A DNA stretch of 64,000 nucleotides from an uncultured Chloroflexia bacterium (GTDB lineage: Bacteria; Chloroflexota; Anaerolineae; Anaerolineales; UBA4823): contig CAVPJC010000014.1 in the NCBI GenBank assembly GCA_963705155.1, forward strand, positions 136,705 through 200,704. The letters run 5' to 3'. The translations under genes were made by a program, and so were the position numbers. A model generated the notes under the pieces. The model did not search any database. It was not told the origin of the DNA and saw only the letters and a program-made list of their open reading frames with translations. This document shows, one piece after another, positions 947 to 38,353 of the stretch (the first letter of the stretch is position 1; every line of letters begins with the position of its first letter).

Positions 947-2245
947 ATGGAAACAAACTTTTTAGATCCATTCATTGAGAACTCTTGAAAGAGAGGCTTT
1001 GACCCAGATACAACTTAAAAAATTCCAGATGATGTTGAGCCATGTTCTGGATAAGAGTTCATTCTACCGTAAAAAATTTCTTGACGCTGGCTTTCGCAGG
1101 GCAGAAGATGTACGTACTGTTGATGATTATCGCCGGTTGCCATTTACAACAAAGGCAGAGATATCGATTGACCAGGCGTCTCATCCCCCTTATGGAACGA
1201 ACCTGACTTATCCGATGGAACAGTACATCCGTATTCATCAGACCTCAGGTACCACTGGTGAGCCGCTGCGATGTCTTGACACCGAGGAAAGCTGGAACTG
1301 GTGGGCTCGCTGCTGGGCGAATGTATATCGCGCTGCTGGCGTTACCTCTCTCGACCGAATCTTTCTTGCTTTCTCTTTCGGACCATTCATTGGATTTTGG
1401 AGCGCTCACGAGGGAGCTCGTCTGATTAAAGCATTAGCTGTGCCAGGCGGTGGGATGTCATCTTATCAACGGGTGAAAGCGATTCTGGTAAACGATATCT
1501 CCGTATTGGTTTGCACGCCTACCTATGCACTGCATCTGGCAGAAGTAGCGGAGCAAGAAGGTTTGGATATCAAAGGATCGAATGTTCGCATCACCATTCA
1601 TGCTGGTGAACCTGGTGCAAGTATCCCGGCGACGAAAGAACGAATTGAGACCCTTTGGGGAGCGCGTTGTTATGACCACGCCGGCGCAACCGAAGTGGGC
1701 GCGTGGGGGTTCGAATGCCAGGCGCAATCGGGATTGCATGTTAATGAAGGTGAGTTTATTTTTGAAATCATCGATCCTGTAACTGGAGAACAAGCCACCG
1801 AGGAGAACTCGTCATTACCAATCTGGGCAGGATTGGAATGCCGATCATTCGTTACCGGACTGGTGATAAAGTAAAACTTTCATCCGAGCGTTGTGAGTGT
1901 GGAAGAACCTACCGGATGTTAGACGGCGGGATCATTGGGCGTGTGGATGATGTATTGATCATTCGCGGTGTTAATGTTTTCCCAAGTGCCATCGAAGGTT
2001 TTGTGCGCCAGTTCCCAGAGGTCAGTGAGTTTGCTGTTGATATTTTCCGGCGGGAACAGCTGGATGAGATGGAAATCCGTCTGGAGGTTCATGGTGGAGA
2101 ACCCGAAGAGGTGGCAAAAGCCGTGGCGAAGGAGATTCGAAATGGCCTCGGTATGCGCATCGCGGTCAGGCCAGTACCTTATGGCACTTTGCCGCGTTTT
2201 GACCTAAAAGCACGCCGGATAAACGATCACCGCTATAAAAAGTAA
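947..2245 (+). CDS. Phenylacetate-CoA ligase (PaaK)-family adenylating enzyme; two frameshifts (~978, ~1800)
   Basis: AGGAG RBS then ATG at 947. HQTSGTTGEP, HAGEPG, DHAGATE, MPIIRYRTGD and GRVDDVLIIRGVNVFP are split over ORFs 975-1874 and 1838-2245. Confidence 0.85.
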
Positions 2246-26107: not shown

Positions 26108-27748
26108 ATGGATATAAGTACTTATTTACGACCGTTGTTGAAGTGGTGGTGGTTACTATTAATCGCTACCCTCATCGCCGCGATATCAAGCTATCTGGTA
26201 ACCAGCCAACAACCACCAATTTTTCAATCACGCGCTACACTGGTGAGCGGACGGGCTGTTTACGAAGCGAATCCAACTGGAAATGACCTATACCTTAATC
26301 AGCAGCTGGCCGCTTTTTATGCTGATATGGCTCGTAGGGAACCAGTTCGGAATGCCACCTTGCAAGCCCTGGGGCTACAGCAACTACCCGATTACACCGC
26401 GACTGTGTTACCAGACAGCCAATTAATCGAGATTGTTGTTTCGGACACTGATCCTGGACGAGCTCAGGCGGTAGCGAATGAGCTAGCCAACCAGCTGGTG
26501 AAAAAAACACCGATTAATGATCAAGATAGCGCCCGCCAGGCATTCATTCAAGAACAATTAAACCAATTGCAGAACAGGATTAATGAAACCCAAGACGAGA
26601 TTGCCGCCAAACAGAACGAGATGGCAAAACTTGTCAGCGCACGTCAAATATCGGATATCCAACAAGAAATTGCTGCACTAGAAGAGAAATTATCCTCGTT
26701 CCGGCTGAATTATTCCAACCTTTTATCAAATTCTGATCGGGGAGCTACGAATACTCTTACAGTCCTTGAAACGGCTGACAGACCCAGGATACCGATCGGA
26801 CCGAATCGATTAATAACGGTATTACTATCGGGTGCAATCGCCCTTGCACTTGCGGGCGCGGCAGCCTATTTAATGGAATACCTGGATGACACTGTCAAAA
26901 CACCGGATGAAATTACTCGACTGCTGGATATCCCCGTCATCGGTTTTGTGTCAGAGATGGGTAAAGACCTGTTGGATGATGGATCCATCGCCAAACAGCC
27001 TCGCTCAGTGGTGGCTGAGGAATTCCGAGGTTTGCGGACAGACCTGGAATTTGCAGGTGTAGACCGGCCATTAAAGACTATTCTTGTGACCAGTTCTGGG
27101 GTATCCGCTGGAAAGACAACCATTGCAATAAATCTGGCGATTGTGATGGCGCAAAGTGGAAAACGGGTGATCCTGGTTGATGCCGATCTCCGTAGACCCA
27201 TGGTTCACAAATATCTTGATCTGCCCAATCAGAAAGGTATGTGTGATGTATTCCGTGGCGGTTTGGATGTTTATAATGCCGCAATCCATTGGAAAGAAGG
27301 AAACATATTTGTCATTCCGAGTGGTGGTGTTCCACCCAATCCAACGGAACTCCTGGGTTCCAAGAAAATGGATCAGATTCTGGATAGCCTGGAACGGACT
27401 GCAGATGTGGTTATTCTGGATGCACCACCACTTATGGTCACTGATTTAACGATTTTGGCTTCCAAAGTCGATGGTATCTTGCTCGTCGTGCGCCACGGTT
27501 TCACACGCCGCCCTGAAATCGTATCTGCAGTTAAGCGTCTAACGCGTGCAGATGTTCGTGTGGTTGGCTCAGTGTTAAACCGGATTCCACGCGCTGGCAT
27601 GGAATATGGGGGTTTATATCGATACTACAATACTTATCTGGAAGAGGGTGAAAAACCGGCACCGGGAAAAAATGGAAAATCAAAACTGGCAGGTTTATTG
27701 GGTCGTCGCGAGAAGACAGTTGATGTAGAACCGAAGAAGTCCGGATAG
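26108..27748 (+). CDS. Polysaccharide co-polymerase/tyrosine autokinase (Wzz-Wzc/CpsCD fusion)
   Basis: Wzz N-terminus and coiled coil. EEFRGLRT, GKTT Walker A, DADLRRP, DAPP and a C-terminal Tyr cluster YGGLYRYYNTY. Confidence 0.92.
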   Translation: MDISTYLRPLLKWWWLLLIATLIAAISSYLVTSQQPPIFQSRATLVSGRAVYEANPTGNDLYLNQQLAAFYADMARREPVRNATLQALGLQQLPDYTATVLPDSQLIEIVVSDTDPGRAQAVANELANQLVKKTPINDQDSARQAFIQEQLNQLQNRINETQDEIAAKQNEMAKLVSARQISDIQQEIAALEEKLSSFRLNYSNLLSNSDRGATNTLTVLETADRPRIPIGPNRLITVLLSGAIALALAGAAAYLMEYLDDTVKTPDEITRLLDIPVIGFVSEMGKDLLDDGSIAKQPRSVVAEEFRGLRTDLEFAGVDRPLKTILVTSSGVSAGKTTIAINLAIVMAQSGKRVILVDADLRRPMVHKYLDLPNQKGMCDVFRGGLDVYNAAIHWKEGNIFVIPSGGVPPNPTELLGSKKMDQILDSLERTADVVILDAPPLMVTDLTILASKVDGILLVVRHGFTRRPEIVSAVKRLTRADVRVVGSVLNRIPRAGMEYGGLYRYYNTYLEEGEKPAPGKNGKSKLAGLLGRREKTVDVEPKKSG

Positions 27749-27920
27749 TCCAATGCCAAACAGAAGCACGTAATTATCTGGTGGCAGCAACCTGTGTGCT
27801 CCAACAACGTAGAATGTCGCGTGGATGCAAGTTACACAATTGCAGAAGTATGCAAGACCTGAGGAGGTAACCCAGGTAATTGAACTGGCAGGAGATAATG
27901 AAGCGCCTCAGTTACACCGA

Positions 27921-27939
27921 TTAACCTTTTAAAGGTTAA
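27921..27939. promoter_or_regulatory. 19-bp palindrome, candidate operator
   Basis: TTAACCTTT-T-AAAGGTTAA is a perfect inverted repeat ending 4 bp upstream of the -35 box. Confidence 0.5.
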
Positions 27940-27943
27940 CTCC

Positions 27944-27972
27944 TTGACAAACACTGGATCGACGTGTACAAT
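27944..27972 (+). promoter_or_regulatory. Sigma70-type promoter of the aro operon
   Basis: TTGACA (27944-27949), 17-bp spacer, TACAAT (27967-27972). Confidence 0.85.
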
Positions 27973-28006
27973 CCTGCTCAATTAGTTGGGATCTGGTTAA
28001 GAAATC

Positions 28007-28084
28007 ATGACTCACTCCTCTTTTTTCTATTTTGCCTGGGTTTATTACGGCTACCGAAATTCGGCAGCCGTTGCCGGCGCTTAA
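28007..28084 (+). CDS. Aromatic amino acid attenuator leader peptide MTHSSFFYFAWVYYGYRNSAAVAGA
   Basis: 25-codon uORF between the promoter and the terminator. 8 of 11 consecutive codons are Phe, Tyr or Trp. Confidence 0.85.
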   Translation: MTHSSFFYFAWVYYGYRNSAAVAGA

Positions 28085-28111
28085 GCGGGAGTAGAGAATT
28101 TTCACACCCAC

Positions 28112-28144
28112 AACGCGAGGCCAACGGCCTCGCGTTTTCATTTT
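28112..28144 (+). terminator. Attenuator (3:4) intrinsic terminator
   Basis: AACGCGAGGCC-AAC-GGCCTCGCGTT followed by TTCATTTT, just upstream of the first aro gene. Confidence 0.88.
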
Positions 28145-28160
28145 AGACTGGAAGGTGCTT

Positions 28161-28550
28161 ATGACCGTGAGAGGTATACGCGGAGCAACGGTAGCTATTG
28201 AAGATCACGGATCGGCAATTTTGGGTGCTACCCGGGATCTTTTGCAAGCGATATTGGCCGCTAACCCGGTACATCCCGATGATATTGCCAGCGTTTTCTT
28301 TACAGTCACCGAAGACATCAGTTCGACCTATCCGGCGCTGGCGGCGCGAGAGCTGGGTTGGCAAAACGTTCCGTTATTATGTTCGCGCGAAATTCCGGTT
28401 CCTGGCAGCCTTCCATTATGTATCCGTGTGTTAATCCATTGGAATACCGACTTACCCCAAAAAGCCATTCAACACGTTTACCTAGGTGAGGCTGCAATAT
28501 TAAGACCGGATTTAACCCCAGACAAATCTCAGATCGAATTGGAGGATTGA
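28161..28550 (+). CDS. aroH: Chorismate mutase, AroH (Bacillus) type
   Basis: VRGIRGAT, FTVTED, YPALAAR, CIRVL and HVYLGEAAILRPDL motifs. Confidence 0.93.
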   Translation: MTVRGIRGATVAIEDHGSAILGATRDLLQAILAANPVHPDDIASVFFTVTEDISSTYPALAARELGWQNVPLLCSREIPVPGSLPLCIRVLIHWNTDLPQKAIQHVYLGEAAILRPDLTPDKSQIELED

Positions 28551-28553
28551 GCC

Positions 28554-29605
28554 ATGATGATTGTAATGCGTGCCAATGCTACAGACGAACAGATTACCCA
28601 TGTAGTGGAAGTGGTAAAAGGATTGGGCTTGCGCGCTCATTTATCGAAGGGCGCCGAGCGAACCGTCATTGGGGCTATTGGTGATGGTCGCCCGATTCAA
28701 AAGGATCAGTTTTTCTTCCTGCCTGGAGTGGATCGAGTTGTTCCAATCTCGCGTCCTTTAAGATCACATCGCGTGAATTCAAACCGGATAGTACGATCTT
28801 TACCCTGGATGGTGTGAGTATAGGCGGGGATGAAATTGTTATCATCGCTGGACCATGCTCTGTCGAAAACCGTACGCAGCTACTTGAGACGGCACATGCT
28901 GTTCGTGAAGCGGGCGCCCATGCATTGCGCGGTGGAGCATTCAAACCACGCACCTCGCCGTACTCCTTCCAGGGTCTCGGTGAAGAAGGTCTGGAATATC
29001 TGGCGGAAGCGCGTGAGCAGACCGGCCTGCCAATTATTACTGAAGTGATGTCGCCAGATCAGATCCCACTTTTGTTAAAATATGCAGACGTACTGCAGGT
29101 CGGCGCCCGCAATATGCAAAATTATTCACTGCTCCACGCGGTCGGCGCCAGCCAGCAGCCAGTACTTTTGAAACGCGGTATGTCTGCCACTATTGAGGAA
29201 TTGTTGATGGCTGCCGAATACATCCTATCGCACGGCAACCGACGGGTTATTCTGTGTGAACGCGGCATCCGTACCTTCGAGACAGCCACACGGAATACAA
29301 CGGATATCAACGCTGTGCCAGTATTAAAATCGCTTACACATTTACCGGTTATCCTGGATCCCAGCCACAGCACGGGTAATTATGAGTATGTGAACGCGAT
29401 CGCGCGGGCGGGCATTGCTGCTGGCGCGGATGGTTTGATCGTTGAGGTACATATCGATCCGGGAAGCGCGTTGTCGGATGGCGGGCAATCTCTCAAGCCT
29501 GAACGTTTCGCTCAGATGGTGACACAGGTCAGCGCTATCGCCCAGGCTGTGGGTAGATCGCTGGCGCCAGCCCGGCATAAAAGTTCACCTGGCGCAGCAT
29601 TATGA
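28554..29605 (+). CDS. aroF: DAHP synthase class I-beta with N-terminal ferredoxin-like regulatory domain; frameshift ~28758
   Basis: [13 protein letters not shown]-terminal domain, then [27 protein letters not shown] and DPSH. Confidence 0.92.
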
Positions 29606-30474
29606 ACGATCCTGATTTTTTTAGCAGCTCCAGGGTTGGTATCCTGGGGCTGGGATTGATGGGAGGCTCTCTGGCGCTGGCGCTGCGCGGCAAATGCCGC
29701 CAATTGTATGCCTATGACCCTGATCCAGTTACGATCTCTCTTGCAGGCAGGATGGATGCTGTTGATCGACTTTCGCTCGATCTCGCTGAAATCATCCCAA
29801 TGGCCGATGTTCTTATCCTGGCAGCCCCGGTGAAGGGCATCCTGGATCTAATTGAACAATTACCACAACTGCACCCGGGTGCGCCTGTGGTTCTGGATAT
29901 CGGTTCAACCAAGACCCAGGTGTGCCAGATGCTCGCCCAGCTTCCCGAGAGATTTCATGCGGTTGGCGGGCATCCCATGTGTGGCCTTGCCGCGACCGGT
30001 CTGGCTTATGCCAGGTCTGATCTTTTTCGAGGCGCGATATTTGCTTTCACACCGGTGCCAAACACAACCGATCTGGCAAGGCTAACGGCCGAGGCACTGG
30101 CGGAACTTATTGGGGCAAAATCCTTTTGGCTGGATGCCGACACCCATGATGAATGGGTAGCAGCCACCAGCCACATACCGTATTTACTTTCGCTGGCATT
30201 GACGTTGGCCACACCTGTGGAAGCTCGCCCTCTGGTTGGACCCGGGTTTTTATCCAGCTCGCGATTGGCAGGCAGCTCGACTGCTATGATGGCAGATATT
30301 TTGAGGACCAATACACAAAATATCTGCCAAGCATTGGGGCGTTTTCAGGAACAGATGGCAGCAATCAAAGCTTTGTTGGAAGCGGATGGAGTAGATCGCC
30401 TGGCCCAGTTAATGAGCGAAGGGGCTGCCCGGCGTGCTTTCCTGGCGGGCGATCAAATGGGACAAACACCATGA
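29602..30474 (+). CDS. tyrA: Prephenate/arogenate dehydrogenase
   Basis: [21 protein letters not shown] and [12 protein letters not shown] motifs. Confidence 0.9.
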
Positions 30475-31817
30475 AACTGACTGTTACTCCGAATTATGCG
30501 CTCACAGGAAGTTACCAGCTTGCCGGTGATAAATCCCTCTCGCATCGGGCTGCTCTACTGGGGGCTATGGCTCATGGCGTTAGTGAGATTGATAATTTTC
30601 TCGTGGCAGGTGTAACTGACGCAATGTTGAAGGCGTTTACAGTTCTTCAGGTGCAATGGAAAATCGATGCTGACAGGTTGACCGTGCAAGGCGCCGGGCT
30701 GCAAGGCTGGTTACCATCTCGCGATGCCCTGGATTGTGGAAATTCTGCGACAACGATGCGTTTATTAGCCGGGGCGCTAGCAGCAGCAGGGTTGCCCGCA
30801 ATTTTGGATGGGTCTGATTCCCTGCGCAGACGCCCCATGAAACGCATCATTGAGCCGCTGGAACAAATGGGTGCAGAGATTAATGCCTCTGGTGGCTGTG
30901 CACCGCTCTTGATTTCAGCGCGAACCGTACCCTTAAAAGGCATCGATTATACAATGCCGGTTGCGAGCGCGGAGGTAAAATCCTGTGTGCTTCTGGCTGG
31001 CCTGGCAGCCAGGGGTGTGATCACACTGCGCGAGCCTGCTCCGTCCAGAGATCACACGGAACGAATGTTCCGAAGCATGGGGATTGAAATCGTTAGTGAT
31101 GTGGATGAGATTGCTGGCAGGCAAACATATGTTACCCGATTGTACCCTCCAGATGCAATAAATTTGCCAGCATTGAAACTGCGCTTGCCAGGCGACATCT
31201 CTGCTGCTGCCTTTTTGATAGTAGCGGGATTGATTACCCCTGGCTCTGATATTGTTCTCAGCCATGTCTGCCTGAATCCCACACGAACGGGATTGCTGGA
31301 TGCTTTAGTAAGTATGGGCGCACAGATAGAGATTGTCCCGCAGGGGGAGGAGCATGGGGAGCCGGTGGGAAATATTCGTGTTCGCTCCTCATCCTTGAAG
31401 GCAACCAGTGTATCCGGCGAGCTGGTCGTTCGGATGATCGACGAGTTCCCTGCTTTTGCAGTGGCAGCAGCCTATGCTTATGGAAAAACCAGCGTCTGTG
31501 ATGCGGAGGAGCTCCGGCATAAAGAATCCGACCGGATTCTGGCGCTTTGTGGTGAACTGCGTTCTCTGGGGATTCGGGCTGAGGAACAACAGGATGGTTT
31601 TGTCATTCAAGGAGGAAACCAACCTGAGGGAGGTGAGGTTGGCGCTCACAACGATCATCGCCTTGCAATGGCACTTTCTCTCGTAGGTTTAGCCTCCAAA
31701 CAATCTGTCATTGTGCATGGCGCAGAGATCATCGCCGAATCGTTCCCCAATTTTATCCAGGCATTAAACAGCCTGGGAGCGTGCACTTCGATTACGGACC
31801 AGGGTTGCAACGGATGA
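30471..31817 (+). CDS. aroA: EPSP synthase (class II-like)
   Basis: GDKSLSHR, LDCGNSATTMRL, RDHTE, NPTR, ELRHKESDR and DHRLAM motifs. Confidence 0.95.
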   Translation: MKLTVTPNYALTGSYQLAGDKSLSHRAALLGAMAHGVSEIDNFLVAGVTDAMLKAFTVLQVQWKIDADRLTVQGAGLQGWLPSRDALDCGNSATTMRLLAGALAAAGLPAILDGSDSLRRRPMKRIIEPLEQMGAEINASGGCAPLLISARTVPLKGIDYTMPVASAEVKSCVLLAGLAARGVITLREPAPSRDHTERMFRSMGIEIVSDVDEIAGRQTYVTRLYPPDAINLPALKLRLPGDISAAAFLIVAGLITPGSDIVLSHVCLNPTRTGLLDALVSMGAQIEIVPQGEEHGEPVGNIRVRSSSLKATSVSGELVVRMIDEFPAFAVAAAYAYGKTSVCDAEELRHKESDRILALCGELRSLGIRAEEQQDGFVIQGGNQPEGGEVGAHNDHRLAMALSLVGLASKQSVIVHGAEIIAESFPNFIQALNSLGACTSITDQGCNG

Positions 31818-32707
31818 ACTACCGCCTCGGCCTGGTTGGTTATCCACTGGATCACAGCATTTCGCCAGCGTTGCATAGCGCCGGGCTGGTCGCATTAGAA
31901 TTATCCGGGGAGTATATCCGATATCCAATCCCTGATCTACCGTCGGGATGGGACGGATTTGAATACTTGGTGAATCAGTTGAAGACCGGCGAGCTTGACG
32001 GGTTGAATGTTACCATTCCTTATAAGCAGATCATTATCCAATGGCTGGATGTACTGACGCCAACAGCAAAAGCAATTGGAGCAGTAAACACACTGTACTG
32101 CCGTGTCGATAAACTGGTTGGAGATAATACAGACGCTGGTGGTTTCTTGCTGGATCTTGAGAGGGTGTTCGGCAGCAAGGTTTGGCCAGTGGGCGATACC
32201 GGGTTACCCGGGACTGCTATGATACTGGGGGCGGGAGGTTCTGCGTGGGCAGTCGCTTACAGTCTAAATCGGGCCGGTTGGAGGCTGGCACTTGCAGCTC
32301 GAAATATTTCAAAAGCAGAAGACCTGGCTGTCAGCCTGGAGTTGAATACCTGTGAGATTGTCCATCTTTCACCTGAAGGAATCAAAAGCTTTCTGGAAAA
32401 CAATAATGCGGTTGTTGGCCTGGTGGTGAACACAACCCCACTGGGTATGTTCCCAGATTTGGAGAATAGTCCCTGGCCGATTGAAATTCCGCTGCCCGTT
32501 GAAGCTCGTATATATGATTTGGTGTACAATCCGAGAACGACTCGATTTGTTCTTAATGCTCAAACAACCGGCCATCGCTCGGCCAACGGTCTGGGGATGC
32601 TGGTAGAACAGGCAGCGTTGGCCCTGGAAATATGGACCGGTCAGCAGGTGCCCAGACAACCTATGTACACCGCGGCGGAACAGGCTCTCAACGAAATGAG
32701 ATCCTAA
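31814..32707 (+). CDS. aroE: Shikimate dehydrogenase
   Basis: HSISPALH, GLNVTIPYK, GAVNT, NTD, GAGGSA and DLVYNP motifs. Confidence 0.95.
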   Translation: MNYRLGLVGYPLDHSISPALHSAGLVALELSGEYIRYPIPDLPSGWDGFEYLVNQLKTGELDGLNVTIPYKQIIIQWLDVLTPTAKAIGAVNTLYCRVDKLVGDNTDAGGFLLDLERVFGSKVWPVGDTGLPGTAMILGAGGSAWAVAYSLNRAGWRLALAARNISKAEDLAVSLELNTCEIVHLSPEGIKSFLENNNAVVGLVVNTTPLGMFPDLENSPWPIEIPLPVEARIYDLVYNPRTTRFVLNAQTTGHRSANGLGMLVEQAALALEIWTGQQVPRQPMYTAAEQALNEMRS

Positions 32708-32727
32708 TCTATGGAGTATGACATTAC

Positions 32728-33891
32728 ATGAAAACGCGAGCACAGCGTTTAAATAGCACATCCATGCAATTCTTTGCGACAGCAAATGAAAAAATACGCG
32801 CCCTTACGGCAGCCGGAAAGGATGTGATTCGCCTGGACATCGGATCGCCAGATCTTCCTCCACCGGTCCATATCCTGAATGCATTGACCCGATCAGCAGC
32901 ACAAGATGATAATCATGGCTACCAACCACACAATGCGACTGATGAGCTTCGAAAAGCCTGGGCTCATATGTATCATCAGAACTATCAGGTGGAATTAGAT
33001 CCGGCCAGTAAAATTCTCCCCTTGATGGGCTCAAAAGAAGGCATCTTTCATCTGCTCCTGGCTTTGATCGATCCCGGTGATGTGGTTTTGATCCCTGATC
33101 CGGGTTATCTCACCTATTCGCAGGGCACGTTGGTGAGTGGCGGCGAACCGTATTTTCTGCCTCTACAGGCTGCCAATGGTTACCTGCCAGACCTGAATGC
33201 TATACCAGAAGAAATTGCGCGCAGAGCGAGGTTACTCTGGCTCAATTATCCCAATAACCCCACTGCGGCGACGGCTCCACCTGAATTTTTTCAGAAGGCG
33301 GTAGAATTCGGGCATGAATACGATCTCCTGGTATGCCACGATGCTGCTTATGGGCAGGTGGCCTTTGATGGTTACAAAGCGCCAAGCTTGATGCAGATAC
33401 CGGGGGCACCGGAAGTGTCGGTTGAATTCAACACCCTTTCAAAATCACATAATATGGCTGGCTGGCGTGTCGGGGTAGCGGTTGGCAATCCACAGGTATT
33501 AAAATCCCTCTATATGTTGAAAACGAATGCAGATAGTGGACATTTTTTGCCTGTACTACACGCGGGCACAATGGCGCTCATGGGTGACCAGAGCTGGTTA
33601 GCCGATCGGAACAAAATTTACGAGCAACGACGGGATATCACCGTTGAGAACCTGCACTCTATGGGCTTGACGGCTGAAAAACCACGGGCATCTATCTATG
33701 TCTGGTGCCCGGTGCCGGATGGCTGGTTGTGTGAACCGTTTGCTGAGCACCTGCTTGAGAATGCGCATGTCAGTGTCGCGCCTGGAACGGTGTTCGGTCA
33801 GCAGGGGGAGGGTTATTTCCGGATCGCGCTGACGGCACCCGGGTATCGGATACAAGAAGCCATGCAGCGGATCGCTCAATCGATAAGGTAA
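32728..33891 (+). CDS. PLP-dependent class I/II aminotransferase (LL-DAP aminotransferase-like)
   Basis: GSKEG, NYPNNPT, HDAAY and LSKSHNMAGWRVG motifs. Confidence 0.9.
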   Translation: MKTRAQRLNSTSMQFFATANEKIRALTAAGKDVIRLDIGSPDLPPPVHILNALTRSAAQDDNHGYQPHNATDELRKAWAHMYHQNYQVELDPASKILPLMGSKEGIFHLLLALIDPGDVVLIPDPGYLTYSQGTLVSGGEPYFLPLQAANGYLPDLNAIPEEIARRARLLWLNYPNNPTAATAPPEFFQKAVEFGHEYDLLVCHDAAYGQVAFDGYKAPSLMQIPGAPEVSVEFNTLSKSHNMAGWRVGVAVGNPQVLKSLYMLKTNADSGHFLPVLHAGTMALMGDQSWLADRNKIYEQRRDITVENLHSMGLTAEKPRASIYVWCPVPDGWLCEPFAEHLLENAHVSVAPGTVFGQQGEGYFRIALTAPGYRIQEAMQRIAQSIR

Positions 33892-33905
33892 ATTAGAAGA
33901 GGCCT

Positions 33906-35075
33906 ATGACTTTACGATTTCTAACTTCAGGTGAATCTCATGGTCCAGGATTAACGGCAATTTTGGAAGGAATGCCAGCCGGACTACTGCTCGATGAGGC
34001 GATGATCAACCGGGAACTCGCCCGGCGCCAACAGGGCTTTGGGGCGGGTCCTCGAATGAAAATCGAACAAGACACAGTGCGTATCCTGGGTGGCACCATG
34101 GAAGGGAAGACAATCGGGGCGCCGATCGCTTTGTACATTGAAAACCTGGATCATGTCCGTTGGCGAGGTCGATTGGTGGCGCCATTCAGCATACCACGTC
34201 CGGGGCATGCTGACCTGACCGGAGCAGTTAAGTATGGCTACACCGATCTGAGGCCGGCGCTGGAACGAGCTTCGGCACGAGAGACTGCAGCCCGTGTGGC
34301 CGTGGGAGCGGTATGCAAACGACTGTTATCTCAATTCGGTATTCAGATCGGAGGATATGTTATCGCGATTGGGGCGATTACTGCAGAACTGAGCGGTCTT
34401 GATTATGCCAGGCGGTTTGAATTGGCCGAGAGCTCAGACGTTCGTTGTCCCGAACCTGGCGCAGCGGAGTTGATGCGCGCCAGCATTCGCCAGATCATGT
34501 TGGAGAAGGACACCCTGGGTGGTGTTCTTGAAGTTGTCGCCCTGGGTGTACCCCCGGGGCTTGGCTCACATGTTCATTGGGACAGGCGGCTGGAAGGCCG
34601 GTTGAGCGCAGCGGTGATGAGCGTGCCGGCAATCAAGGGAGTGGAGGTTGGACCAGCCTTTGAAAATGCCCGTTTGAAAGGCACCCAGGTTCATGATGCC
34701 ATCCGGCTGGAAGGGTCGAATCTCACGCGCCCGACGGACCGCTCCGGCGGCCTGGAAGGCGGTATCACGACGGGGCAGCCGCTGATATTGCGTGTAGCCA
34801 TGAAACCGATTGCCACAACCCTGACACCGCAGTTATCTGTTGATCTGGCCAGTGGGGTAGAAGTGCCAACACAATATGAGCGGTCGGATTTTTGTCCTGT
34901 GCCGCGCGCTGTGCCAATCCTGGAGGCGATGATTGCGTTCATTCTGGCCGATGCAGTTATTGAAAAACTGGGCGGGGATTCGTTGGACGAAATGCTGCCC
35001 AGATGGGCCAGCATGCGTAGGGCCAGCCTGGATGATTTGCGCATAGACGGTAGCGAGCATGAATGGTGGGCTTAG
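33906..35075 (+). CDS. aroC: Chorismate synthase
   Basis: LTSGESHG, RPGHAD, ERASARETA, MKPI and ERSD motifs. Confidence 0.96.
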   Translation: MTLRFLTSGESHGPGLTAILEGMPAGLLLDEAMINRELARRQQGFGAGPRMKIEQDTVRILGGTMEGKTIGAPIALYIENLDHVRWRGRLVAPFSIPRPGHADLTGAVKYGYTDLRPALERASARETAARVAVGAVCKRLLSQFGIQIGGYVIAIGAITAELSGLDYARRFELAESSDVRCPEPGAAELMRASIRQIMLEKDTLGGVLEVVALGVPPGLGSHVHWDRRLEGRLSAAVMSVPAIKGVEVGPAFENARLKGTQVHDAIRLEGSNLTRPTDRSGGLEGGITTGQPLILRVAMKPIATTLTPQLSVDLASGVEVPTQYERSDFCPVPRAVPILEAMIAFILADAVIEKLGGDSLDEMLPRWASMRRASLDDLRIDGSEHEWWA

Positions 35076-35102
35076 ACAAGATAGCATAAGGCATATTTAT
35101 TC

Positions 35103-36675
35103 ATGGACCGGCAAAATGTCAACCGTTTCATATTTCTCTATGGACCACCTGGCGCAGGAAAGAGCAGCGTTGGACGCCGCCTGGCAAAGGTGCTGGAAGT
35201 CCCCTTCTGTGATCTTGATGGTGAAATCGAGTTATTCAGCCGGATGTCGATCGAAGAGATTTTTTCAAGAGATGGCGAAGGCGTTTTTCGCCGGTTGGAA
35301 AAAGCTGCTCTGGAACGAATTGTAGAATCGGGCGATGGGGTGGTGGCATTAGGAGGTGGTGCTCTGCTGGACGAATCCAGCCGTAGCCTGGTAGAAAAAC
35401 GTGGGAAGGGTTTACTTTTTGGATTCCCCATATGATGTCTTGAAAATGCGGTTACAGGATGGGCCAGTACGACCGTTAATACAGGGAGATGCCGGAGAGC
35501 GGTTAAGAAAGTTGTTGGAGAACCGTGTGGAACATTATTGCTCCTTTTCTCAAAGGATTGACACTTCAACTCAATCCATTGATGCTGTCGTTTATGAGAT
35601 TCAGATCAGATCGGGCTGGTTCCGAGTGCATGGAATGGCGACGTCTTACGGGGTCTATGTAGTCTCCGGTGGATTGAGCGAAATTGGGGATCTGTTTGCG
35701 AGAAATGGATTGAAAGGCCCCGTAGTTCTTGTCACCGATGATCATGTGGCAGGCTTTCATGCGGGCACAGTGATCGATTCGCTTCAAGCAAGCGGTATTG
35801 GGGTCACAATGTGTGTTATTCCGGCGGGTGAGCGGTATAAAACGGTGAAGACCGTGGAAACACTTTGGAAGCATTTCCTGGCAGCCGGGGTTGAACGAAG
35901 CAGCACTATCATTGCTCTTGGCGGCGGGGTTGTAGGCGATCTGACTGGTTTTGCAGCCGCTACGTACTTACGCGGGGTTGCCTGGGTAGCCTTGCCGACC
36001 ACTTTGTTGGCGATGGTAGATGCCAGCATAGGTGGGAAAACAGGCGCAGATCTGCCGGAGGGGAAAAACCTGGTGGGGGCATTCCACCCACCCCGCCTAA
36101 TTTTAACGGATCCACAAACTCTGAAATCATTACCTGGCGAGGAATTGCGTAGCGGGTTGGCTGAGGTAGTGAAACATGGTGTGATCGGTGATCCTGATTT
36201 ATTCATATTGTGCACCCACCCTGACTCCATGAAAGACCCCCAGATTCTTGACGAAATCGTACGGCGGGCGATAGCAGTAAAAATCCGAGTTATCCAGGCA
36301 GATCCGTACGAGAAGGGTATCCGTGCTGCACTCAATCTGGGACACACGTTAGGCCATGCAATCGAATCGGTATCGGGTTACCATTTGCGGCACGGAGAAG
36401 CAGTAGCGATTGGTATGGTAGCAGCGGCTCGCCTTGCGGAGAAGGAAGGGATCGCTTCTCCCGGTTTGGCGCAGAAAATTGAGGCCGTTCTGATAGGCCT
36501 GGGGTTGCCAACACACATCCCACGCGATCTTCCAGTCGACAAAATTTTACAAGCTATGCGTGTAGACAAAAAAAAGTTGGATGGCAGCCTTCGATTTGTT
36601 CTACCGGTGCAAATCGGCGAGGTAGTCACTGGTATCAGCGTGGATGAAGCCCATATCCTGGAGGAGCTTTTATGA
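35103..36675 (+). CDS. aroB: Shikimate kinase / 3-dehydroquinate synthase fusion (AroK-AroB); frameshift ~35405
   Basis: GPPGAGKS, DLD and FRRLE (AroK) continue into GGGVVGD, PTTLLAMVDASIGGK and LNLGHT (AroB). Confidence 0.88.
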
Positions 36676-37112
36676 AATCTGTGTTGATATTGCATGGGCC
36701 GAACTTGAATTTATTGGGCAGCCGTGAACCAGATGTATATGGATTACTCACTCTGGACGATATCAATTCCCGGTTAGTAAAACTTGGCGCCGATCTCGGG
36801 GTGGGTGTCCGAACTTTTCAATCCAATCATGAGGGAGAACTGGTGGATGCGCTCCAGGAAGCTCGCAACTGGGCTGCAGGAGTTGTTTTTAATCCAGCTG
36901 GATATACTCACACCTCGGTCACACTGCGAGATACGGTCGCTTCAATTGGTATTCCCGTGGTTGAAGTGCATCTATCCAATGTATATGCGCGCGAACCATT
37001 TCGTCACTTTTCGTACCTTTCGCCGGTGTGTGTGGGAAAAATCAGCGGTTTTGGGTGGCGATCGTACCTACTCGGGCTTCAAGCTCTGGCGTGGATATTG
37101 GAAGCAGATTAG
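36672..37112 (+). CDS. aroQ: Type II 3-dehydroquinate dehydratase
   Basis: HGPNLNLLGSREPDVYG, QSNHEG, NPAGYTHTS and EVHLSN motifs. Confidence 0.96.
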   Translation: MKSVLILHGPNLNLLGSREPDVYGLLTLDDINSRLVKLGADLGVGVRTFQSNHEGELVDALQEARNWAAGVVFNPAGYTHTSVTLRDTVASIGIPVVEVHLSNVYAREPFRHFSYLSPVCVGKISGFGWRSYLLGLQALAWILEAD

Positions 37113-37175
37113 GAACCAGCCATTTGGTTATCCAAAATTTCTTCTGCGTACCGGTAAGTGAGATTTAATAGAAAC

Positions 37176-37203
37176 AAAAACCACCCTTATATAAAAAGGG
37201 TGG
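37176..37203 (-). terminator. Intrinsic terminator downstream of the tRNA
   Basis: CCACCCTT/AAGGGTGG stem, with an A-run on + (U-run on -). Confidence 0.65.
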
Positions 37204-37214
37204 CGTCGGGATCA

Positions 37215-37287
37215 TACCCCCACCGCGAACTCGAACGTGGGCCTTTGCCTCCGGAGGGCAACGCTCTATCCACTGAGCTATGGGGGC
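37215..37287 (-). tRNA. tRNA-Arg(CCG), CCA not encoded
   Basis: Minus strand GCCCCCATAGCTCAGTGGATAGAGCG-TTGCC-CTCCGGA-GGCAA...TTCGAG...TGGGGGTA. The T-arm is slightly irregular, probably from a sequencing error. Confidence 0.9.
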
Positions 37288-37350
37288 GTTTTTCGGACAG
37301 CGGAATTTTACCATGAGAAAGACGGCTTGCAAATAGCCTGGATCAAACCG

Positions 37351-38353
37351 TCAATCACCAAAGAGGGATAAAGATAATCGGGCCAGTTCGGACCGAAGTT
37401 TTTCAATGATGAGCGTGTTGCCATCCTCTTCACCCATTCTGGTACGCTGATGTTTTTTATGGGCAAGCTCCGCGGTAAGTTGGTAGAACTGGTTAGTGGC
37501 AAGGTATTTTCCATTTGCAAGGCTTGAAAAACGGGCAGCGCTTTGCGCCAGCGCAGAACAAGCGGTTCGATATTGAGCTGGACTGATAATGCCCATCTGC
37601 ACTTCTTCTTCTAATTGGGTTTGCAAAGTACGTTGTTCTTGAAGGATGGCAAATATAATTACCCCCAGCATAAATAACCAGCCTGTCCAATCAACGGCGG
37701 TGCTGATGATCAGCCCTCCGACGCCGGAGAGAAAACTGGCTAATGTATTGTGAAATGCGTGGGTGAATACAGCGATGCACCAGCCCAGTCCGGGGGCGAT
37801 GATTTTTATCGGCAGGTTTTGATTAAGTCGGGAAATTGCCAGGCCAATACCGATGAATGCCGTATAGAAGGGGTGCTGCCAACCCACCAGAATCACCCGG
37901 ACGAAGATCAGAGTTAAAAAGACCCTGAAAGCCATTTTCCTGATAACCATACTGGAAAATATAAAATGAATTTTCGGTTGCAGCAAATCCAAGCGCGGTG
38001 ATGCCAGCATAGACAATTCCATCCAAAACTGAATCAAATTCGTTCCGAAAGAATAGAAACACGGCCAGTACTGCCAGGCCCTTGACGCTTTCTTCGATGA
38101 TGGGAGCGATGAAGGTACCTGTAGTGAGATCCGTAAAAAGTTCTGAATTGGTTACGAGAAAAACGCTCAATCCAAGAACTGTGTTTACCAGAAACGCCGC
38201 CCCGGCTGCCACGACTGCCCCCCACAGAAATACACCGACCAACATTGCTCCCGGTTCTTTTTCATACCTGTCCAACCAATAGACGAACCAGGCAAAAAAG
38301 AACATTGGAATGACGCCGAAGAAAATCGATAACACTATACCCACGATAACCAC
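37351..38353 (-). CDS. PrsW-family intramembrane glutamic metalloprotease; frameshift ~37915
   Basis: DRYEKEP, APIIEESVKG, GFAATEN, HPFYTAFIG and HAFHN motifs across two overlapping ORFs. Confidence 0.88.

Follow-up and report, generated by a model that had tools for sequence, protein, structure and literature searches.

The window analyzed here, a 64,000-nucleotide (nt) stretch of contig CAVPJC010000014.1 from the assembly GCA_963705155.1 of an uncultured Chloroflexia bacterium (Anaerolineales; UBA4823), contains an operon for the common pathway of aromatic amino acid biosynthesis (hereafter the aro operon), which is preceded by a short leader. We consider it very probable, judging from the sequence, that this leader is a classical ribosome-mediated leader-peptide attenuator of transcription, which would sense phenylalanine (Phe) and tyrosine (Tyr) and thereby gate the aro operon. 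A single tryptophan (Trp) codon in it may add a weaker, lineage-specific Trp input. The locus combines an upstream open reading frame (uORF), a cluster of codons for the end products of the pathway, an intrinsic terminator, an antiterminator that is mutually exclusive with it, and a stop codon positioned such that a terminating ribosome would mask the 5' strand of that antiterminator. The leader and its relatives make up a new family, spread across the order and previously not catalogued, of attenuators of a well-known type.

A sequence-only reading of this DNA had proposed that a whole shikimate operon is preceded by a leader-peptide attenuator able to form three alternative stems, and our analysis supports that proposal. 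The promoter, the uORF, the stems 1:2, 2:3 and 3:4 and the U-run were all recovered base for base where it had placed them, the eleven-codon stretch with three Phe, four Tyr and one Trp indeed corresponds to codons 6-16 of the uORF, and the annotation of the genes from aroH to aroQ is borne out by NCBIfam models, with the DAHP synthase gene and aroK-aroB each split by a frameshift (Table 1). The order of the parts, namely promoter, uORF, terminator and then the Shine-Dalgarno sequence and aroH, is canonical for attenuators. The promoter matches 11 of the 12 consensus positions and is the top one of 10 promoter-like sites scored in a scan of 11 kilobases (27000-38000). The terminator has a stem of 11 base pairs (bp), 8 of them G-C, with a loop of 3 nt, and its U-run is separated from aroH by 16 nt. 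Given that the gene 5' of the leader, which ends at 27748, encodes an unrelated polysaccharide tyrosine autokinase, the terminator does not close a preceding operon. When the entire host assembly (5.27 megabases in 26 contigs, with an estimated completeness of 84.8%) was scanned for short open reading frames (ORFs) followed by a terminator, this was the sole site with at least five aromatic residues in any span of nine; the best such span of this uORF contains seven.

Folding with ViennaRNA brings positions 28007-28097 into a single long imperfect hairpin (-31.0 kcal/mol) with the 1:2 stem at its apex. The inner hairpin at 28047-28071 has by itself an energy of -13.9 kcal/mol, and in the outer helices the coding region, including the GCC-TGG codons, pairs with the bases around the stop codon and those beyond it. 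The terminator (28112-28136) folds at -19.1 kcal/mol. The antiterminator has a core of 7 bp, GCCGTTG (28067-28073) with CAACGGC (28122-28128), and extends to a 12-bp duplex of 28067-28080 with 28115-28128 at about -20 kcal/mol. In this duplex GCCGUU (28067-28072) pairs with AACGGC (28123-28128), GCC pairs with GGC across one bulged C and, beyond a short internal loop, CGC pairs with GCG within the 5' arm of the terminator. In a fold of 28007-28128, which leaves out the greater part of the terminator's 3' arm, the antiterminator is the minimum-energy structure when the bases up to 28058 are kept unpaired in order to mimic a stalled ribosome.

From these structures we infer the following dynamics. 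Transcription would start from the promoter, and the 25-codon uORF would be translated. With ample Phe and Tyr the ribosome would reach the stop codon and cover segment 2, or, once it had gone, segment 2 would be locked within the long 1:2 structure; in both situations the 3:4 terminator would form and transcription would end before aroH. Were charged tRNA-Phe or tRNA-Tyr scarce, the ribosome would stall in the FFYFAWVYYGY run, which makes up the 5' strand of 1:2 and also lies immediately before it. Segment 2, freed in this way, would pair with segment 3 and so tie up the upper 5' arm, the loop and the start of the 3' arm of the terminator, upon which RNA polymerase would read through into the operon. 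Read-through into aroH-DAHPS-tyrA-aroA-aroE-aminotransferase-aroC-aroKB-aroQ would accordingly be set by the charging of tRNA-Phe and tRNA-Tyr.

Comparison with homologous leaders bears on each of the three stems. A MAFFT alignment of 17 homologues, from which the covariance model R1 was built, has 88.2% of its cells paired for 1:2 and 3:4 taken together, as against 28-51% in slid controls. Both sides have changed in 10 of the 21 pairs, and the covariation score was reached by none of 500 shuffles, a figure which, like the other shuffle and permutation figures for structure given here, overstates the significance, the sequences being related. The compensatory changes fall in 4 of the 10 pairs of the inner hairpin and in 6 of the 11 pairs of the terminator, of which 95-99% of the cells are paired. 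The 2:3 antiterminator is paired in 94.1% of the cells, as against 8.5-54% when slid, and its signal in these 17 sequences is one of conservation more than of covariation. RNAalifold applied to the same alignment recovered the terminator and a small hairpin within segment 2, and recovered neither 1:2 nor 2:3. The stronger evidence for 2:3 comes instead from the divergent clades in a wider set of 88 aligned leaders. Across these the best duplex between segments 2 and 3 has a mean energy of -19.8 kcal/mol and a median z of -2.7, and in 59 of them no more than 5 of 200 shuffles reach its energy. The divergent clades have different segment-2 sequences, each of which still complements the 5' arm and loop of its own terminator: cognate pairs average -19.8 kcal/mol as against -17.7 +/- 0.27 for permuted partners, and none of 2000 permutations reached the observed mean. 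Segment 2 and the 5' arm of the terminator that belongs to it thus co-evolve.

The leader is widely distributed in the order. A blastn search of 40 related genomes with a 241-nt region as query found it, from the aromatic codons through the terminator, in 16 genomes, and all 16 loci have a TTGAC...TAnnnT promoter in the same relative position as in the window, a Phe/Tyr-rich uORF, the segment-2 motif, the terminator and aroH; a further match, at locus L018, was rejected as due to chance. In a survey sample of 151 genomes from 18 families of the order, R1 matched 80 places in 75 genomes belonging to 16 families. Phe/Tyr-rich leaders account for 75 of these places, in 74 genomes, and the other 5 are threonine/methionine (Thr/Met)-rich leaders of aspartate kinase genes, which were left out of the 88-leader set and are considered further below. 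Of the 151 genomes 100 have the aroH family TIGR01796, and in 72 of the 100 a leader was detected by R1. We inspected 27 of the 28 aroH-positive, R1-negative genomes, the aroH of the last one lying at a contig start, and found a Phe/Tyr-rich uORF with a terminator directly 5' of aroH in 16, the uORF alone in 3 and a terminator alone in 2, the terminator finder used on them being crude. R1 undercounts leaders; the 72 that it detected and the 16 recognized by eye indicate that about 88 of the 100 aroH-bearing genomes carry one. When five R1-negative genomes were searched with the AroH protein, four were found to lack aroH. As the leader's presence or absence tracks that of aroH, it is a marker of prototrophy for aromatic amino acids in these organisms, most of them uncultured.

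Within the set of 88 aligned leaders 78 lie ahead of aroH, 8 ahead of a DAHP synthase gene (about 360-380 nt downstream in 3 of them) and 2 are cut by contig ends. One genus (L113 and L125 in G036; also L122 in G080 and L126 in G066) has a second aromatic leader, MSTKFYFFSYFYFW..., besides the aroH-linked one, and this precedes a DAHP synthase paralogue about 360-380 nt downstream. A class-wide R1 search outside the order matched two genomes, neither match being an aro leader. An exact search for the segment-2 motif in 185,579 species genomes returned 48 matches, every one under a record title that names Chloroflexi, Chloroflexota, Chloroflexia, Anaerolineae, Anaerolineales, Anaerolineaceae, Anaerolinea or Pelolinea (Anaerolinea thermophila and Pelolinea sp. 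being among them), in agreement with the Chloroflexota setting proposed in the sequence-only reading and, more narrowly, with an Anaerolineae lineage. The homologous leaders occur in dozens of genera and have kept their cluster of aromatic codons as well as the hairpins, the loss of either from homologues had been named beforehand as grounds for abandoning the proposal.

Several points, in addition to the relatedness of the sequences compared, weigh against the attenuator reading. The uORF in the window has no clear Shine-Dalgarno sequence, and its ATG lies 34 nt past the -10 box. The covariation in 2:3 across the 17 sequences is modest, with 2 pairs and 4 cells showing double changes and a score also attained by 23 of 500 shuffles. 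The first Phe codons (28022-28033) are at least 14 nt 5' of the inner hairpin, and a ribosome stalled at them may open the outer helices alone. When the whole terminator is present it wins thermodynamically every time, even with the 5' part masked; since 2:3 and 3:4 are of similar stability, the switch would have to be kinetic, as we presume it to be by comparison with the classical systems. Neither the uORF nor the terminator of such a leader was detected in 6 of the 27 inspected aroH-bearing, R1-negative genomes. Finally, the operon would be decaying if the two frameshifts in it were real.

The coding content of the uORF indicates which amino acids are likely to be sensed. We compared the 2148 residues of the 88 leaders with a background drawn from the ORFs of at least 300 amino acids (aa) in the host genome. 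Phe contributes 305 residues (14.2% versus 3.8%, or 3.7-fold) and Tyr 306 (14.2% versus 2.8%, or 5-fold). At least four Phe and Tyr residues are present in each of the 88 leaders, and both kinds in 87; the best 11-residue stretch has 4-9 aromatic residues across the set, and 8 in the window. Both synonymous codons are in use for each (196 TTT and 109 TTC; 143 TAT and 163 TAC), and the uORFs begin with ATG in 86 cases and GTG in 2. Trp, with 37 residues (1.7% versus a background of 1.6%; binomial p = 0.38), is not enriched. The earlier proposal that this leader reads Phe, Tyr and Trp together is thus supported for the first two, whereas the reading of Trp, a codon for which is present in 32 of the 88 leaders, is not a conserved property.

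This leaves the possibility, which we regard as rather doubtful, of a true three-input attenuator, in which Trp starvation sensed through the sole Trp codon of the run (TGG, 28037-28039) would derepress the common pathway as effectively as starvation for Phe or Tyr. The position of this codon is suited to such a role, being in the middle of the run and 8 nt before the inner hairpin, where a stalled ribosome would cover most of the 5' arm, and the operon yields chorismate, which is also needed for Trp synthesis. Moreover, where Trp is present in a leader it adjoins Phe or Tyr in 27 of 37 cases, as against 356 of 1500 for the other, non-aromatic residues (Fisher p = 7e-10, with lineages that are not independent), and its varied positions in different clades (RWF, AWY, YWY, YWF, FWF) suggest repeated recruitment. 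However, just 32 leaders have any Trp codon, its frequency is that of the background, the leader in the window has one Trp codon as against seven for Phe and Tyr, and the TGG pairs with segment 2 in the middle helix, so that a constraint on RNA structure could explain its position. Furthermore, the trp operon of the host (contig C26) is preceded by a T-box leader of its own (L154 2519-2860, minus strand; RF00230, 97.1 bits versus a gathering score of 93). The genes of this operon, judging from N-terminal similarity, are probably trpE, trpG, trpD and trpC. The Trp branch would therefore be controlled through tRNA sensing, and the common pathway through the leader peptide. Hence, the conserved inputs of the leader would be Phe and Tyr, with Trp as an optional, repeatedly acquired input that may possibly be working in this genome.

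The most conserved nucleotides of the leader are segment 2 and the terminator, and four leaders (L006, L035, L038 and L041) with a one-base shift of frame within the uORF keep the nucleotides and not the peptide, with a stop within about 10 nt. The conserved ...AVGGA* ending of the peptide therefore reflects a constraint on the RNA and not on the peptide. Such conservation of nucleotides, together with these frame shifts and the unconserved C-terminal peptide, would also suit a switch to which the uORF were incidental and which were set by a protein that binds RNA, by a tRNA in the manner of a T-box or by a riboswitch for a small molecule. We consider this highly improbable, since the 88 leaders have kept a start codon, a frame that stays open, a stop codon at constant distance and an enrichment in Phe and Tyr with synonymous variation, and since their N-terminal halves are free to vary in nucleotide sequence and length and yet always encode the aromatic run. 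Also, a scan of 27000-29000 on both strands for Rfam families at E up to 10 gave no match, Trp_leader, Phe_leader, His_leader, Leu_leader, Thr_leader and T-box being included, and the locus therefore belongs to no catalogued leader family; the same T-box (RF00230) search that has no match at the aro leader detects the one ahead of the trp operon.

Where the ribosome would terminate is likewise kept: the stop codon ends 18 nt past the start of segment 2 in 37 of the 43 leaders in which spacings were counted, including that of the window, and with this fixed spacing a terminating ribosome would cover segment 2. At the other end of the uORF, in 23 of the same 43 leaders (L015, L009, L017, L012, L023, L025-L028, L032 and others), the start codon lies only 6-12 nt, and mostly 8-10 nt, past the -10 box, a distance implying that their leader peptides are translated in leaderless fashion.

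Table 1. Elements of the leader and genes of the operon in the window; genes were assigned with NCBIfam models, and all features are on the plus strand.
Feature	Start	End	Strand	Details
sigma-70-type promoter	27944	27972	+	-35 TTGACA 27944-27949; 17-nt spacer; -10 TACAAT 27967-27972
Leader peptide uORF	28007	28084	+	ATG 28007; 25 codons and TAA (28082-28084); encodes MTHSSFFYFAWVYYGYRNSAAVAGA
Regulatory codon run	28022	28054	+	FFYFAWVYYGY, codons 6-16; 3 Phe, 4 Tyr, 1 Trp
Structure 1:2 (protector)	28011	28096	+	inner hairpin 28047-28071 enclosed by outer helices
Segment 2, 5' strand of antiterminator	28067	28080	+	spans the last five sense codons; stop codon next, at 28082
Segment 3, 3' strand of antiterminator	28115	28128	+	upper 5' arm, loop and first 3'-arm bases of the terminator
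Intrinsic terminator 3:4	28112	28144	+	stem-loop 28112-28136, then U-run TTTTCATTTT
Shine-Dalgarno and aroH, AroH-type chorismate mutase	28150	28550	+	GGAAGG 28150-28155; ATG 28161; TIGR01796, 138 bits (cut-off 82)
DAHP synthase with N-terminal regulatory domain	28554	29605	+	NF006421 (positions 1-71 and 89-336); frameshift-split near 28757-28770
tyrA, prephenate dehydrogenase	29602	30474	+	several models, at most 167 bits, all below curated cut-offs; assigned at family level
aroA, EPSP synthase	30471	31817	+	TIGR01356, 358 bits
aroE, shikimate dehydrogenase	31814	32707	+	TIGR00507, 197.8 bits, just under the cut-off of 200.2
Class I/II aminotransferase	32728	33891	+	best models LL-DAP or aspartate aminotransferases, all below cut-off
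aroC, chorismate synthase	33906	35075	+	NF003793, 409 bits
aroK-aroB, shikimate kinase and 3-dehydroquinate synthase	35103	36675	+	frameshift-split near 35395-35410
aroQ, type II 3-dehydroquinate dehydratase	36672	37112	+	final gene of the operon; TIGR01088, 189 bits

The operon behind the leader spans about 9 kilobases (28161-37112), with neighboring genes that overlap or are at most 27 nt apart, and encodes all seven steps of the shikimate pathway as well as a chorismate mutase, a prephenate dehydrogenase and an aminotransferase, which from this context we infer to be an aromatic aminotransferase. The leader is seated on the operon through which chorismate is channeled toward Phe and Tyr. 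Both the DAHP synthase gene and aroK-aroB are broken by a one-base frame change, and were these two frameshifts genuine, an intact attenuator might be the relic of a pathway whose genes have become a decaying cluster of pseudogenes. We see little chance of this. The junction in aroK adjoins short runs of A and of G, the relatives have intact frames, including a DAHP synthase in one continuous frame, and an assembly of this completeness and number of contigs fits with systematic indel errors. Given that hisG and all three chorismate-binding genes of the genome, namely trpE and two others, are likewise split (contigs C26, C2, C19 and C20), the frameshifts look like assembly errors arising from systematic indels rather than gene decay.

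Other genes of amino acid biosynthesis in the host present a varied regulatory picture. The pheA gene (PF00800, 222 bits; contig C13, about 189800-190600, minus strand) starts 22 nt after a 307-aa ORF, and no leader of its own was found at this locus. By its N-terminus this ORF is presumably a branched-chain aminotransferase, and it follows an ORF that appears to be leuB-like. On contig C20 hisG (TIGR00070) has 5' of it a promoter, a 31-codon uORF with four consecutive histidine codons (HHHH) and a terminator (L155, about 1290-1500, with the uORF at 1362-1457, minus strand), and this upstream region is a candidate histidine attenuator. The aro leader, the hisG leader and the trp T-box together indicate that the host uses both leader-peptide attenuation and T-box control. 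Two further candidates in this genome were rejected: an R1 match on contig C19 is merely the terminator of a gene, and a Thr-rich ORF that the genome scan picked up on contig C15 is no leader but a repeat read in an alternative frame, and the gene downstream of it has a start that appears to resemble that of mutL.

Beyond the host, the Thr/Met-rich leaders mentioned above (for example ...TTTGTMTTTAR...; L128 and L146-L149, in G029, G085, G111, G052 and G058) possess a scaffold of segment 2, stop codon and terminator that is matched by R1. In all five an ORF of roughly 465-500 aa follows, with a shared conserved N-terminus, and the one tested, downstream of L146, is an aspartate kinase (NF004938, 506 bits). 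This suggests that they are paralogous attenuators with re-specified codons. Another Thr-rich leader was observed in L019 (G033). Two other loci, which are the matches of the class-wide R1 search outside the order, were rejected as aro leaders. L051 (G268, about 1500-1650) has a non-aromatic uORF (...PRARRRVVRA) with the stop context GCGCTTAAGC shared with the aro leaders, and then a terminator, upstream of a gene. In L052 (G181, from another order of the class; about 1480-1650, minus strand) the uORF has six Tyr codons in a row (YYYYYY) and lies, together with a terminator, upstream of the gene for a periplasmic protein that binds amino acids (Peripla_BP_6, 205 bits); an uptake system may here be controlled by an attenuator that responds to Tyr.

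One could tentatively go further and suppose, although we lean against it, that Anaerolineales possess a shared, re-programmable attenuator chassis, in which the same segment 2, stop codon and terminator are combined with different regulatory codons. The aro version may read Phe and Tyr, with a Trp codon recruited in roughly a third of the lineages, the host included, where it may act as a three-input sensor for the whole common pathway beside the T-box on the trp operon; the paralogous Thr/Met-rich versions may control aspartate kinase; and about half of the aro leaders may be translated as leaderless mRNAs. If this were true, the attenuators of the order would have arisen by duplication and re-specification of codons, and not independently.

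The finding overturns no principle. Nevertheless, it provides a well-supported RNA regulatory family for a phylum in which gene regulation is almost unstudied, and one leader would be able to gate an entire shikimate pathway along with chorismate mutase and the Tyr branch through two amino acid inputs. The family is suited to an Rfam-type entry, which would improve the annotation of metagenome-assembled genomes of Anaerolineales, and its members, some of which have a Trp codon and some not, and the uORFs of which are either leadered or leaderless, form a natural series for studying how attenuator inputs evolve.

A search of the open literature found no description of such a leader in Chloroflexi or Anaerolinea. 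A survey of leader genes that mentions Chloroflexi deems the group too sparsely sampled (PMC4833913), and in a 2005 survey no RNA element turned up for the Phe or Tyr genes of Actinobacteria (PMC1262725). The premise from which the sequence-only reading had started, that attenuators usually sense one amino acid and control terminal branches, is outdated, going by two reports in which leaders precede DAHP synthase genes: aroR of Corynebacterium glutamicum (PMC11802643) and the uORFC-13-1 motif, a predicted uORF ahead of aroF in Acholeplasma (PMC8632094). According to the former, which like PMC3082878 summarizes the mechanism of trpL/pheL attenuation, the aroF DAHP synthase operon is under the control of the aroR leader (Phe-Tyr-Phe), which reacts to a shortage of Phe (Neshat et al. 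2014), and the availability of Tyr is without effect on the transcription that this leader controls.

The closest functional analogue, aroR, resembles the present leader in being a mixed Phe/Tyr leader at which stalling raises an operon with the entry enzyme of the common pathway. It is from another phylum, and the likeness is one of functional analogy. The run is much longer here, with 8 aromatic codons versus 3 in aroR; the operon, unlike that of aroR, holds all seven shikimate steps together with chorismate mutase, TyrA and the aminotransferase; and, in contrast to the reported lack of a Tyr effect on aroR, Tyr codons here are enriched as much as Phe codons. The uORFC-13-1 motif is similar in having a uORF with Phe codons, and then a terminator, ahead of DAHP synthase. 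It differs in being confined to Acholeplasma and environmental sequences and in having a U-run that encodes at least one Phe, with no Tyr run described there, and the aro locus has no Rfam match to it.

Like the T-box (RF00230), the aro leader would let tRNA charging decide between a terminator and an antiterminator, but a T-box, which lacks a uORF, makes direct contact with uncharged tRNA, whereas the aro leader has a uORF that is conserved and presumably translated. In its logic the aro leader would follow the enterobacterial attenuators of trpL-trpEDCBA and pheL-pheA, the mechanism of which is established. With these it shares the 1:2 protector, the 2:3 antiterminator and the 3:4 terminator, regulatory codons that overlap segment 1, and a stop codon placed such that a terminating ribosome masks segment 2. 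It differs from them in having no sequence or structure match to the corresponding Rfam families (Trp_leader and Phe_leader) and in a uORF that seems to be leaderless in about half of its relatives. Finally, whereas trpL and pheL each sense one amino acid and control one terminal branch, the aro leader would sense two amino acids, or possibly three, and control the common pathway together with the Tyr branch.

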